A stretch of DNA of 49,233 bases from Candidatus Pacearchaeota archaeon (lineage in GTDB: Archaea > Nanobdellota > Nanobdellia > Pacearchaeales > GW2011-AR1), in assembly GCA_018304165.1 (NCBI GenBank), contig JAGVWS010000011.1:1-49233 (forward strand). Direction: 5' to 3'. The translations under genes and the position numbers were made by a program. The notes beneath the pieces are model-generated. The model was not told the DNA's origin. It searched no databases and saw nothing but the letters and a program-made list of their open reading frames with translations. Position 1 is the stretch's first letter; each line of letters begins with the position of its first letter. Positions 13,067-43,096 of the stretch are shown piece after piece.

Positions 13067-13208
13067 ATCATATTCATCACACAGAAAGACCACCAGCGGG
13101 TCATCAAAAACGTAAGTTTTTGAATGTGCTCAAGATGTAAAATTCAAACATCTTGACATTTTCTAATCCTGCAACCAGTGTGATGAAGAATATCATATTC
13201 ATCACACA
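13067..13208. repeat. 17-bp direct repeat enclosing a family-A hairpin element
   Basis: ATCATATTCATCACACA at 13067-13083 and 13192-13208; internal 13098-13163 is the reverse complement of the TGTCAAGA/TCTTGAGCA unit. Confidence 0.8.
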
Positions 13209-18119: not shown

Positions 18120-18202
18120 GCCCGCATCGCATAGTGGTATTGCACGGCCCTGGAAAGGCCGGCCCTTTACTGGGCATCCAGGTTCAATTCCTGGTGCGGG
18201 CG
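18120..18202 (+). tRNA. tRNA-Ser(GGA)
   Basis: Acceptor GCCCGCA/TGCGGGC, anticodon arm CGGCC-CTGGAAA-GGCCG, long variable arm, T arm CCAGG-TTCAATT-CCTGG; no CCA. Confidence 0.97.
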
Positions 18203-18297: not shown

Positions 18298-18590
18298 TTA
18301 TATTTTGATATAATACCTTATACCGCAATTAATATTGAAAAGGGTTATTTTTCTTAAGAATAATGCGCAATGGTATTAATAGAAGAGTAATACGGGCAAC
18401 TAATAGATCTATTGCTAGAGTGACTCCAGTTTACCTAATTACTTTAATAAATAATATGTCAACAAGGTTTATGAGATAAGCCAGGTTGCATTTACATATT
18501 CAACGTTAATTTACAAGAGCTAATTTATTGTAGCTATCAAACTCTGTTAATAGAGCGATGTTGAGGGATTTGCTGATAAGCAATCACACT

Positions 18591-18652
18591 CTCTCGACAT
18601 GTCGAAGTTGTTAAACTTCGGGCACGCTCGAGAGCTAAGACAAGCTCTCGAC
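18591..18652. mobile_element. Family-A hairpin element inserted in the guaB 3' end
   Basis: 8-bp direct repeat CTCTCGAC 54 bp apart; removal gives HDVERV-stop instead of HDVESLS-stop. Confidence 0.7.
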
Positions 18653-20086
18653 GTCATGTGCATGGCTTTCCTTTAATCCTGCTGATGTAATCTGCACGAA
18701 TTCTGCATTGCCCCTGATTTCTTCTATGTTTTTGGCTCCGGCATAACTCATTCCGGACTTTAATCCTCCAATTAACTGGTAAATTATTTCTGAAACGCTT
18801 CCTGCATACGGGACCATTGCCTCAACTCCTTCAGGAATGAAGTCAAAAATATTGTCATAGCTTTTATTTCCATTTCCTTTCTCTCCACCATCTCTTTCTT
18901 CTCTTCCCAATTTTGCCCCAAATGAAGCCATGCCTCTTATTACTTTGTACTTTTTATTGTCCTTGACTATTGGGATTCCTGGAGATTGGTCGGTTCCTGA
19001 AAAGAGCCTTCCAATCATTGCTGTTGATGCTCCTGCAGCTATAGCTTTAGTTATGTCACCGGAGCTCCTGATGCCTCCATCAGCAATTATCGGGATTCCG
19101 TATTTGCCGGCTTCTCTTGCACAGTTTGTGATAGCGGAAAGTTGAGGGAATCCTGCGCCGGTAATAATGCGGGTAGTGCAAACAGAACCTCCTCCAACTC
19201 CTACCTTAACTGCGTCTGCACCTACTTCAATTAATTCTTTTGTGCCTTCAGCTGTGCAGACATTTCCTGCAATTACAGGAATGTTAGGAAATTGAGACTT
19301 GAGCTTCTTTAAAGTGTTAATTGCCAAATCTGAATGGCCGTGGGCAATATCTATTACGAGGATATCCGCTCCTGCTTCTATTAAAGCCCTTGCTCTTTGC
19401 AGTGCGTCTTCTTTAACGCCTATTGCTGCTCCGACCAGCAGCCTGCCTTTAGAATCAAGGGATGAATTTGGATGGCTTATTTGCTTTTCAATATCTTTCT
19501 TTGTTATTAATCCGGCGATAGTCCAGTCAGGATTTATCAATGGGAGCTTCTCCACCCTGTTAATTACCATTAAGGAATCGGCTTCACCAATGCTGATGTC
19601 AGGAGAGGAGACAACGAGCCTCTCTCTTGGAGCCATTATTTCTGATATTGGTATCTCATAATTGTTCTTTATGAGCTTCAGGTCCCTGCTTGTTAAAATT
19701 CCGGTGAGCTTATCATCATCTGAGACAACAAGAAGGCTCTTGACGCCTTTGTCCTTCATGAATTTTAATGCATCGCTTAATTTAGAGTTGTATTTTATTG
19801 TATATGGGTTCTTTATGACGGCATTCCTGTACCTTTTGACTTTCAGGACTTCGTGAGCTTGATCATAAATTGAGAGAAACCTGTGTATTATGCCAATTCC
19901 CCCCAATTCTGCAATAGCGATGGCCATATTAGCTTCAGTGATTGTGTCCATGTTTGCGCTGAGCAGGGGAATTTTGAGCTTAATCTTCTTGGTAAGAAAA
20001 GTTTCAGTTGAGACCTCTTTTCTTGAAGTGACTCCGGATTTCTTTGGGACAAGAAGCACGTCATCATAGCTTAAGCCGAGTTCCAT
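18635..20086 (-). CDS. guaB: IMP dehydrogenase with CBS domains
   Basis: [54 protein letters not shown]. Confidence 0.93.
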
Positions 20087-35223: not shown

Positions 35224-35647
35224 ACAAGGTAATTTATTATTAGCACCATTCCCCTTTTCAGACCAATCTGGAAGAAAGGTAAGACCAATAATTGTGATAA
35301 GCAATAATCGTTACAATCAGTATCATGATGATTTGGTAGTTGTTGGAGTTACTTCAAACTTGTTTAAAGACCCCTACTACATTGATTTTACTAATTCTGA
35401 CCTTGATTTTGGCAATTTAACGGCTATTTGTCAAATAATGACTGATGCTCTAACATTAATGGACAAAGAACTATAACGAGAGACCAAAATATTTCACCAT
35501 GTTTTTTGTTCTCTCGAATATATCATAAGACATTATGAGGAAATATTAAAGTCTTATGCTATAATAAGAAAGAGAATAGGTAGAGTTAATAGAAACAAGA
35601 TGAAAGCGATTAATGACAAAATCTTAGAGTTAATAAAGATAAAATGA
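35216..35647 (+). pseudogene. PemK/MazF toxin interrupted by a 90-bp hairpin insertion
   Basis: PFPFSD...K.RP..VIS..VTS; the C-terminus IRKRIGRV...IKIK resumes at 35564. Confidence 0.85.
35474..35563. mobile_element. Family-B composite of two TA-flanked hairpins
   Basis: TA duplication (35472-73/35562-63); the modules recur at 38505-38664 and 39554-39645. Confidence 0.85.
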
Positions 35648-38504: not shown

Positions 38505-38664
38505 TATAACGAGAGACCAAAATATTTTACCATGTTTTTTGTTCTCTCGAATATGTCAAGATGCTGGAGCTTGCATCTTGAGCACACTCAAGATGTCAAA
38601 ATGTTGAAGTATTACATTTTGAGCAACAGACAAAATGGTCAAATACCTAAGTCTGTTGCTGTAG
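38505..38664. mobile_element. Family-B composite hairpin with nested family-A insertion (38555-38621)
   Basis: Aligns to 39554-39645 except for 67 extra bp made of two TGTCAA..TTGAGCA hairpins. Confidence 0.85.
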
Positions 38665-38804
38665 ATTTAATTGGAAATAAACTCATTAACTTTACTTGGT
38701 AGGCAAATTATATCCACAATAACCTAATTAACTAAATATCAGCGTCATTCGCTCAACTAAACTTATGCATCATCTTAAACTTCCACCGTAGTTTATGCCT
38801 TAGA

Positions 38805-40395: not shown

Positions 40396-40500
40396 TTACA
40401 ATCCGTACTTTTTCAGTCTTTTAACTATGAGTCTTGGTGACAGACGACTTTTATCGGGTATAATGGGATAAATGTCATTCATTATTCTATCATTTTGGGT
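40396..40500 (-). repeat. Orphan 3' end of response-regulator gene, copy 2
   Basis: Encodes TQNDRIMNDIYPIIPDKSRLSPRLIVKRLKKYGL-stop. Confidence 0.85.
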
Positions 40501-40580
40501 AAATATATAAAAACTCATTCTAATAAAAAATAGAGCAGAATCTTAGGGATTAAGAATATCCTTTAGGTTAAACTGGTTTA

Positions 40581-41289: not shown

Positions 41290-41846
41290 TCATAATCCAT
41301 ACTCCTCAAGCCTCTTAGCTATAACCTTTGATGTTAATCGCTTTTTATCAAGTATTATTGGATAAATGTCTTTCATAATCCTATCATTTTGAGCAAAATC
41401 TGCAACTATTGACATGTCAAGAATCTTGGACTCCGATTCTTGAGCATGCTCAAAATGTCAAGAACATTAGTTCTTGAGCACATTCAAAATGTCAAGAATT
41501 TACAATTCTTGAGCACAGTCAAGGATTAACATCCTTGATGATTAACATTTTTGATGACTAAGACAAGTTTTTGACACTCCAACTCTCAAGCAATCAGGAT
41601 TGGCTTGAGCAATCCATCTCGCAGAGATTATAGCATCAGCCTTCCATGAATCACTATTCAAATCAAAATCAACTACGGCTAATTGCTAAACATTGCTCAC
41701 GAGCTTCGCTCTCAACTCTTTTTCAGACGAAACAAGGTCTGCTCTCAATGAATAATCCTTTAAAGCTTCTCTAAAAACTTTAGATAATTCCTGCTGATGC
41801 CGAGGCTCGTCTTCAACAATAATAACAGAAAGAGAGAGCGGGTCAT
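41290..41846 (-). pseudogene. Single-domain response regulator (CheY-like receiver) pseudogene
   Basis: SVIIVEDE...QLAVVDFDL...VGVS[insertion]IVADF...ILDKK; 2-nt frameshift near the start, TAG at 41686-88, 162-bp hairpin insertion. Confidence 0.8.
41409..41576. mobile_element. Family-A tandem hairpin array with 6-bp TTGACA duplication
   Basis: 3-4 units of ATGTCAAGA-loop-TCTTGAGCA; removal restores GTG TCA ATA GTT (V-S-I-V). Confidence 0.85.
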
Positions 41847-43096
41847 TTTGATTTTAAAAGCCACTTCCAAACAGGTATTATCTTTATTTTTTTTCCATCT
41901 ATTTTTATTTCTTCTTCCTGATCTAATGTTAAGATGAGGCCTTCAGAAAGGCCATATTTCTGCATGGAATCCAACAATCCTTCAATTTCTCTATTTTTAG
42001 TGGCAGGATTGTTAAGGTTTGTCGATACTTGTATAGCTTGAGTTATTTTCAAGCCCCTTTTTATTACAAAATCGCATTCTCTTTTTTCAAGATGATAATA
42101 GACATCTAAACCATGCTTAACTAACTCTATAAAAACTAAATTTTCCAGCCTTTTTCCTTCATTTTCAGTAAAATTAAAAGCCACCGTTCTTAAGAAACTA
42201 TTATCCATGACATAAAATTTTGATGATGATACCTTCTGTTTCTTTATTGAGTAATCGAACTTAGTTATTGTTGATGCAATAAACACGTTTTTTAAGTATT
42301 CAATATATTTCTTTATCATGCTTAAACTCTTTATACTTGATACTTGTTTCAAAGTAGCATAAGAATATGTTCTGCTGACATTAGAGAAAAGATAAAGGAT
42401 TAAATCATTCAGCTCTTTTACTTTTCTTATGTTATATCTCTTTATTATATCTTTGTTTATTATATCTTCAAAGTATTGTTTGGACAGGCTTAGATCGTCA
42501 TTTTTAATAATTAAAGGAAATCCGCCGGTCTTAAAGTATTCATTAAATGCCTTAAAGACTTCTACTCTCTCGCTCGTGGTCTTGTATTCCGGATTTATTT
42601 TTTTTAGTTTTAAAAATTCTCTGAAAGAGAAGGGCAACAGCTTTATTATTTTATTTCTGCCAGTCAAAAAAGTTGATATCTCAGAACTCAACAGATTTGA
42701 ATTTGAACCAGTAACGAACACCTTGATTTTTTTTGCATAAAGATTATTTACCCATCTTTCCCACGATTTAGCATCCTGTATTTCATCAAGAAAATAAACG
42801 ACTTCCTCTTTCCCATATTTTTCCGCTACTATCTCCTCAATATGAGAAAAATTTTCAATATTAAAATCTGAGAATTTTATATCATCAAAACTCAAGTAAA
42901 ATAACTTCTGTTTAATATTTTTAGATATTATTTTTAGGAGTGAGCTTTTCCCGCATCTTCTTATACCCGTTATAATAACAATCTCATTGCCTTTTAGAAA
43001 TTCATCTATAGAAATTTCCCGATCAATAAGATTGTCCATCTTTCTAAAAAGTTCTTGTTGGTCATTAATTACTTCTCTTAGCTTGTCTTTTTCCAT
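41843..43096 (-). CDS. AAA+ superfamily ATPase (AAA_14/DUF4143 type)
   Basis: GIRRCGKS, FLDEIQ, VTGSNS, GGFP, ENLVF, ECDF...IQV. Confidence 0.9.
   Translation of the reverse strand: MEKDKLREVINDQQELFRKMDNLIDREISIDEFLKGNEIVIITGIRRCGKSSLLKIISKNIKQKLFYLSFDDIKFSDFNIENFSHIEEIVAEKYGKEEVVYFLDEIQDAKSWERWVNNLYAKKIKVFVTGSNSNLLSSEISTFLTGRNKIIKLLPFSFREFLKLKKINPEYKTTSERVEVFKAFNEYFKTGGFPLIIKNDDLSLSKQYFEDIINKDIIKRYNIRKVKELNDLILYLFSNVSRTYSYATLKQVSSIKSLSMIKKYIEYLKNVFIASTITKFDYSIKKQKVSSSKFYVMDNSFLRTVAFNFTENEGKRLENLVFIELVKHGLDVYYHLEKRECDFVIKRGLKITQAIQVSTNLNNPATKNREIEGLLDSMQKYGLSEGLILTLDQEEEIKIDGKKIKIIPVWKWLLKSK

Follow-up and report, generated by a model that had tools for sequence, protein, structure and literature searches.

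Bacteria reportedly carry REP, BIME and REPIN elements together with RAYT (TnpA-REP) transposases. Classical MITEs, for instance the Correia elements, and the Rickettsia palindromic elements are tiny and gene-less, and the latter insert in frame. The TnpA transposase of the IS200/IS605 family uses 4-nt guides. Target choice in this family is made by base pairing between the guide and the cleavage site (PMC3201880, PMC5934647). Intrastrand-triplex repeats of bacteria, PIT and BoxC, are described by Holder et al. 2015 (PMC4666352). The double-hairpin elements and repetitive hairpin-forming elements of mitochondria are mobile, lack genes and consist of two adjacent hairpins (PMC2800124). Literature searches on double-hairpin elements, on MITEs and hairpins of DPANN archaea, and on small dispersed and triplex repeats, in which subscription journals were sparsely covered, gave no description of the family presented here. 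Its anatomy is provided below: bulged hairpin feet extended by two pairs, purine and pyrimidine arms, nesting in the loops of other repeats, and no target duplication.

The host assembly comprises 866,627 bases in 42 contigs, with 37% G+C and about 79% completeness; related genomes range from 0.4 to 1.3 Mb. The window, that is, the whole stretch of DNA analysed, is contig C18 of 49,233 nt. It holds a family member at the 3′ end of guaB (Table 1). Two hairpins between two copies of CTCTCGAC had been pointed out by the initial annotation, and the letters quoted there are found at 18591–18652. The sequence of nt 18591–18655 reads CTCTCGAC-A-TGT-CGAAGTT-gtta-AACTTCG-GGCACGC-TCGAGAGCT-aagaca-AGCTCTCGA-CG. 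The core of hairpin 1, CGAAGTT/gtta/AACTTCG, occupies nt 18603–18620 and is followed by the linker GGCACGC. The core of hairpin 2, TCGAGAGCT/aagaca/AGCTCTCGA, occupies nt 18628–18651 and is followed by C; G18653, the last base of hairpin 2, is a native base of guaB. Folded as single-stranded DNA, the + strand reaches −17.1 kcal/mol with a z of −5.3, and none of 200 shuffles equals it. The − strand folded as RNA gives a z of −3.3.

Table 1. Coordinates of the guaB-site element, its parts and other family copies in the window.
Feature	Position	Strand	Remarks
Inserted 54-nt double-hairpin element	18599..18652	+	computed excision; covariance model 34.0 bits
Left CTCTCGAC, 8-nt direct repeat	18591..18598	.	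native guaB, continues into the old tail and old stop (18584–18586)
Right CTCTCGAC	18645..18652	.	3′ arm of hairpin 2; also codons Val-Glu-Ser of present guaB
Hairpin 1	18600..18624	+	stem CGAAGTT/AACTTCG, T·G closing pair, bulged G, outer pairs TG with CA; fold and covariation
Hairpin 2	18625..18653	+	outer pairs C-G and G-C; bulged C; 9-bp stem TCGAGAGCT/AGCTCTCGA; loop AAGACA
guaB (IMP dehydrogenase, 483 aa)	18635..20086	-	final residues SLS and stop TAG supplied by the element
Further double-hairpin copy	13102..13159	-	no flanking repeat
Double-hairpin units nested within a host repeat M copy	38553..38621	+	after TTCTCTCGAATA; empty M copy at about 39593
162-nt array of four to five family hairpin units	41414..41575	+	ends with canonical CTAAGACAAG-TTTTTGAC

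Excising any of nine equivalent 54-nt frames, with starts from 18591 to 18599, yields an identical empty site. After excision guaB ends with HDV, three more residues and a stop codon at nt 18584–18586. The ten nearest guaB homologues (P0002 to P0011) all end three residues past HDV or HDI. P0002, with 85% identity, ends HDVEEV, and others of the nearest homologues end, for example, HDVEEI or HDVNLI; the named homologues carry the labels Woesearchaeota or archaeon. The best homologue among 40 related genomes displays 51% identity and ends HDVSQA. The present C-terminus of guaB is ...HAHDVESLS, with a stop codon that is the complement of CTA within CTAAGACAAG. That relatives might already end guaB in ESLS had been named as a point against the proposal, and the homologues do not show it: none of the 39 listed ends in this way. 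Because the tail obtained by excision matches the endings of the homologues, both copies of CTCTCGAC run into native guaB, and the right copy runs on into the gene body. The guaB copy is a true insertion of 54 nt, and it swapped the guaB tail ...ERV for ...ESLS. The notion of a family of tiny hairpin elements that insert into DNA is supported. The locus provides a clean and datable landing of a 54-nt gene-less element in a housekeeping gene, in a DPANN-type archaeon with a 0.87-Mb assembly.

The empty guaB site can be deduced from the homologues. It is predicted to read ...GACGTCGAG(A/G)A.GTGTGA, and a site of this form would support the insertion. A DNA search of the 40 relatives for the guaB region gave distant matches only, and a protein search of the relatives gave guaB at no more than 51% identity, with one genome of the same genus having no guaB. 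In the contigs of four public runs, which drop rare variants, the element was present wherever the locus was covered and no joint across it appeared; in run X5 a contig break falls within the element. An 88-nt contig from the same sample (X5 record 9) matches guaB at nt 18651–18682 with 2 differences. Its tail differs (HDVQITEESPN...), indicating the guaB of a second organism and not an empty site.

It was also considered whether the left CTCTCGAC is the 3′ arm of a hairpin further upstream (GTTGAGGGA...TCTCTCGAC, with two G·U pairs), as in the host repeat M described below. This third hairpin was rejected, as the letters to the left are those of the original guaB tail and its stop codon.

The element belongs to a family. 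A descriptor of the form TGT-hairpin-GCA-hairpin, run over the whole genome and over five shuffled genomes, found 23 modules in the genome versus 0–1 in the shuffled ones. Eleven copies, with neither the guaB copy nor its two closest relatives among them, went into a covariance model. This model scores the guaB copy at 34.0 bits on the + strand, with an E of 1.1e-6 for the window, and at 31.1 bits on the − strand. The host genome contains 39 matches at E ≤ 1e-4, about 40 copies altogether, and matches occur in 8 of the 41 genomes searched (G012 19, G019 14, G001 6, G010 4, and three genomes 1 each).

Covariation was scored on 63 matches, including both strands of symmetric copies. In this alignment, which was fitted to the model and so leans towards structure, 96.2% of the cells pair versus 73.8% after shuffling, and 19 of the 21 pairs display changes on both sides. 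The covariation score is 0.571 versus at most 0.106 for slid-partner controls. Here, as in every statistic on kin genomes or repeat copies, independence is overstated. Past a 1-nt bulge at each hairpin foot, two extra pairs are supported by covariation, and one of these extra pairs occurs as AU 26, UA 12, GC 9, CG 1 and other 10 times. The one unpaired base previously seen at the stem foot is this bulge, with two more covarying pairs beyond it. One part of the scaffold proposed along with it needs correction. CTAAGACAAG is no separate box, as its CT/AG forms the inner two pairs of hairpin 2 and its AAGACA forms the loop; alone it occurs in the window no more often than chance predicts (3 times at ≤1 mismatch versus 3.96 expected).

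In each stem, A-U and G-C are the sole alternatives at the outer four or five pairs, so that the 5′ arm stays purine and the 3′ arm stays pyrimidine. This restriction could be due to protein read-out, helix geometry or triplex formation.

In family A (TGTC...GAGCATGCTC...GACA), one bulged hairpin unit, TG-TCRRRR...YYYYGA-G-CA, forms an inverted dimer. The copies at C1:2421, at C35:33265 and in guaB match the model on both strands and share the centre GCATGC.

Strong covariation and the many copies at gene ends would also be expected of a structured RNA or DNA signal that serves the host, for example in guaB mRNA 3′-end formation or as a protein binding site, and a purine arm facing a pyrimidine arm is a strand-specific constraint. 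That the family is such a signal and not mobile DNA is nevertheless highly improbable. Its copies lie in both orientations, in arrays, in other repeats and in reading frames. They are patchy among relatives (8 of 41), and related sites differ by presence or absence. G·U counts of 25 on the + strand and 55 on the − strand favor neither strand clearly, and no Rfam family matches the element (none at nt 18450–18750 even at E ≤ 10).

Host repeats provide further insertions with empty counterparts, although independent insertions with a known empty site form a small sample. Repeat P (...CCTATCCTTAT|AGGCAAGGGTT...) has 8 empty copies and 3 copies filled with family-A inserts, which read ATGTC...TTTTTGAC and follow CCTTAT. 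Repeat M (...TTCTCTCGAATA|CAGCAACAGAC...) has 9 empty and 5–7 filled copies, the inserts reading TGTC...GATG after CGAATA. Inserts at P and M sites bring the entire second hairpin with them; their junctions are ambiguous by no more than 1 nt, and the sequence on the left is unlike the 3′ arm. The filled M copies have the first hairpin in common, but the second hairpin at this one site comes in three versions, a pattern suggestive of repeated site-specific insertion or of module swapping.

Repeat P has the form ...agaaCCTATCCTTAT|AGGCAAGGGTT...ttgataaattgcctata... and was observed at G000 C41:5049 and at least 10 other places, among them C5, C14, C34:17245, C36:14911, C38, C25:3589, C35:33253 and C12. 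Three of its copies hold double-hairpin inserts, at exactly one loop position. The IS200-type gene at C41:4511–4969 has a P copy immediately downstream, which may be the right end or a derivative of that element. Repeat M is a multi-hairpin repeat of roughly 100 nt, CGAGAGACC...TTGTTCTCTCGAATA-CAGCAACAGAC...GTCTGTTGC, with 14 sites in the genome; those in the window are at nt 35511, 38510–38670 and 39593.

The guaB copy is a diverged member of the family. In a gapless alignment with the 54-nt copy at C1:2421 it differs at 17 positions, by 16 transitions and 1 transversion. Seven compensatory pairs account for 14 of these differences, and four of the pairs are in hairpin 1. Because the hairpin 1 pairs are unrelated to the target, the guaB copy cannot be read as a canonical copy rewritten at one stem. 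No second member of its sublineage was found in the host genome (79% complete), nor in genome and viral contig collections searched with loop-anchored and hairpin-1 exact patterns; in a metagenome collection the loop-anchored pattern returned only the C1:2422 locus, twice.

These data bear on the proposal that the stems are templated by the target, with the second hairpin of a canonical element rewritten to the target letters through heteroduplex or G·T mismatch correction or snap-back synthesis. The native − strand GTCGAGAG indeed pairs with the canonical arm TTTTTGAC by Watson-Crick and G·T pairs only, and 12 of the 16 transitions go from AT to GC. The four compensatory pairs of hairpin 1, however, could not be templated by any target. 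Whole second hairpins, unchanged, came with the inserts at the P and M sites, next to unrelated flanks and with no duplication. Several ad hoc steps would be required as well, and we regard templating at guaB as extremely unlikely.

The initial annotation also held that the stems covary with the target, and asked for the correlation between stem and flank over all copies in the genome. The end of the left flank was compared with the 3′ end of the element in 76 model matches, 39 from the host genome and 37 from relatives; some near-duplicates were kept, several registers were allowed, and flanks paired with the element of another copy served as controls. The longest repeat is at most 4 nt in 69 copies, as in the mispaired controls, 5 nt in 2, 6 nt in 4, and 8 nt in 1, the guaB copy. 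Among the 6-nt repeats, two belong to the duplicate pair C7/C21, one is the low-complexity CTTTTT, and one is possibly a junction of neighboring units. In the mispaired controls, repeats of ≥6 nt make up 1.8% of cases and repeats of 8 nt 0.07%. The stems are independent of the target as a rule, and a family-wide covariation of stem with target is not borne out. What stands is the guaB case itself, in which the 3′ stem arm equals the target word CTCTCGAC.

The canonical subfamily points the same way. TTTTTGAC is its fixed 3′ end at unrelated targets, and of six copies with the CTAAGACAAG loop motif, five (one with a single mismatch) end in TTTTTGAC at different places. A genome-wide search for 8-nt triples of the form word, complement, word identified 18 places versus 0–2 in shuffles; they are mostly arrays or AT-rich, and no further clear case was found among them. 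The family is not a programmable insertion system, and no family-wide link exists between flank and stem. With the programmable stem rejected at the family level, attention stays on what mobilises the elements.

The second case from which the covarying stems had been drawn is an array at a supposed response regulator. This copy, quoted at nt 41409–41576, ends CTAAGACAAG-TTTTTGACA, and TTGAC flanks the array on both sides (nt 41409–41413 and 41571–41575). The match of TTGAC, with or without a further A, is confirmed, but it covers 5–6 nt only, and the TTTTTGAC arm is the one fixed at unrelated targets. The array lies in frame in a receiver-like reading frame (VIIVEDEP...VVDFDL...) at nt 41572–41853 of the − strand, which has an in-frame TAG at nt 41686–41688. 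The pieces of this frame gave no Response_reg match in Pfam and no homologues, and Rfam at nt 41300–41700 returned chance-level matches only. The frame is probably a decayed or orphan gene. A 40-aa paralogue of the frame next to the array does not reach across the junction. The site is not confirmable as native coding sequence because there is no Response_reg match, there are no homologues, and the paralogue misses the junction. Two paralogous frames of 40–41 aa (...QNDRIM.DIYPII.DK..L....KRL..YGL) are located on the − strand at nt 40396–40518 and 41290–41415. They resemble each other in DNA over about 150 nt, up to a point 16 nt before the array.

To account for the guaB copy, we favor, with confidence a little above even, that a diverged gene-less double-hairpin copy joined guaB at a site sharing 8 nt with its own 3′ end. 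The element would be mobilised in trans, probably as single strands; this form of mobilisation is suggested because copies sit in hairpin loops, form arrays and leave no duplication. The donor lineage would already have diverged, with a hairpin 2 reading TCGAGAGCT/AGCTCTCGA. A single-stranded or circular intermediate would then join by short homology at the 8-nt match to the 3′ end of the element, and the layout of word, element, word would be the one expected from a single crossover or from joining at short homology. The mirroring of the target by the stem has a simple cause: the repeated 8-nt word is the terminal hairpin arm of the element, and the opposite arm is its complement. The P and M sites clearly need no homology, and the short-homology step is thus invoked for a minority of events.

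The 8-nt identity between flank and 3′ arm may instead be a coincidence in an ordinary duplication-free insertion, helped by the low complexity of the pyrimidine arm. The flank repeats as a whole are near the mispaired null, with ≥5 nt in 7 of 76 copies versus 4.2% expected. The genome has CTCTCGAC at 5 further positions, and the guaB case was chosen for its striking look. About 0.05 eight-nt repeats are expected in 76 copies. Against coincidence, the repeat stops exactly at both junctions, and the placement needs either a duplication or a shared 8-mer. A second, coding-like site has TTGAC plus A, and two more sites have 5–7 nt. The complementarity to native guaB, moreover, reaches one base past the repeat. 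We consider coincidence unlikely.

This extra base leads to another explanation, in which the element carries its own guide. Nine bases of native guaB (CTCTCGACG) can pair with the 5′ strand of hairpin 2, CG(C)TCGAGAG, in a complementarity that spans the conserved 1-nt bulge and goes one base beyond the repeat, to G18653. This strand would pair with the 3′ end in cis and with the identical target word in trans; an HUH-type enzyme would cut after ...GAC at both places, and a change of the stem would retarget the element. The complementarity at G18653 fits such a guide slightly better than it fits the short-homology join. Target recognition of IS608 is reported to be made by base pairing and to be re-programmable (PMC5934647, PMC3201880).

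Candidate enzymes exist in the host. Three Y1 transposase genes (Y1_Tnp, IS200-type) are located on contigs C34, C41 and C37, and the C34 copy is accompanied by tnpB. An HUH or IS110-type enzyme flanked by the family hairpins had been anticipated, and none was found: the flanks of the Y1 genes carry other hairpins, the covariance model has no match at these loci (L001–L003) at E ≤ 0.1, and PF01548 of the IS110 type has no match in the genome (79% complete). Among 41 genomes, 12 have a Y1 match, 8 have hairpins and five, among them the four with the most copies, have both. The Y1 matches in G010 and G018 carry in-frame stops; G001, with 6 copies, lacks a Y1 match. Since the genomes are kin, this co-occurrence counts at most as a hint. 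On contig C48 of G012, a Y1 gene was considered as one lying beside hairpins and was rejected, since the two copies are 1.8 kb off with two unrelated ORFs between.

The three Y1 genes, and the Y1 matches in all four copy-richest genomes (that of G010 with its in-frame stops), would suit a guide. The insertion sites do not. The same TCAAAAACT/AGTTTTTGA stem follows CCTTAT at the three P sites and also GCTTAAT, and M-nested copies that differ in the second hairpin, of which there are three kinds, share one site. No repeat beyond chance is seen in 69 of the 76 copies. The IS200-type genes have other end hairpins and no model match nearby, the left junction is too close to hairpin 1 for a guide of the IS608 type, and the six copies of G001 come without a Y1 match. 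A built-in guide is therefore quite unlikely.

An extended version, in which hairpin 2 is a guide of 8–9 nt, drift of the stem retargets the element, guaB is the first retargeted example, and the P and M sites represent a second, loop-targeting mode, seems to us very doubtful. Compared with IS200/IS605, the guide would be doubled in length relative to what is known, and it would reside in an element of 54 nt without genes. If true, it would amount to a minimal self-targeting DNA element of practical interest. The join by short homology remains the reading that we favor for guaB.

By analogy, the family appears to resemble REP/REPIN or PATE elements most and yet to fall outside both. Like REP and REPIN elements, it comprises short many-copy hairpins with a conserved foot motif (here ATGTC and GAGCAC), compensatory drift in the stems, and arrays; the symmetric family A, in which one hairpin unit and its conserved foot motif are doubled in inverted orientation, is built like a REPIN. 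Unlike them, it occurs in an archaeal host, has bulged feet and purine/pyrimidine outer stems, and is found in coding DNA and repeat loops, and none of the three Y1 (RAYT) genes is flanked by its hairpins. With IS200/IS605 elements and PATEs it shares hairpin ends, the lack of target duplication at the P and M sites and, in the guaB copy, an internal strand complementary to the target. However, its ends differ from the hairpins of the resident IS200/IS605 elements (TnpA/TnpB on C34, TnpA on C41 and C37), which sets it apart from a PATE. The words on its left vary (TTAT, AATA, CGAC, TGAC, CTTG), unlike those of IS200/IS605. The guide geometry of IS608 does not fit, and target complementarity is present in one copy only.

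Other known systems are further away. As with MITEs and the Rickettsia elements, insertion can rewrite or extend proteins, as seen in the guaB tail and the 162-nt in-frame array. A classical MITE would have a fixed duplication, whereas here it is 0–1 nt at the P and M sites and 8 nt at guaB; the terminal inverted repeats of the family are only 4–5 nt (TGTCA...TGACA). The outer stems are strictly purine/pyrimidine like those of PIT and BoxC, and the guaB copy has a third pyrimidine word, CTCTCTC, upstream. Unlike in PIT and BoxC, this third strand is present in the guaB copy only, where it is a direct repeat with some non-pyrimidine letters (GAC) and is native coding sequence. The elements differ from IS110/IS1111 bridge-RNA elements in that no DEDD transposase gene (PF01548) occurs in the genome at its 79% completeness. 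The mitochondrial double-hairpin elements have unrelated hosts and sequences, and the likeness is one of description (PMC2800124).

Two observations concern tRNA sequences. A tRNA gene at nt 18120–18202, 380 nt downstream of guaB, was identified by the Rfam tRNA model with 55.6 bits. It covers 83 nt compared with 71 positions of the model, and may contain an insertion or intron. At G000 C27:~12270, on the − strand, the tRNA T-arm-like TCAAATCC is arranged as word, complement and word within 40 nt; this triple may have arisen when an integrating element duplicated a tRNA 3′ end.
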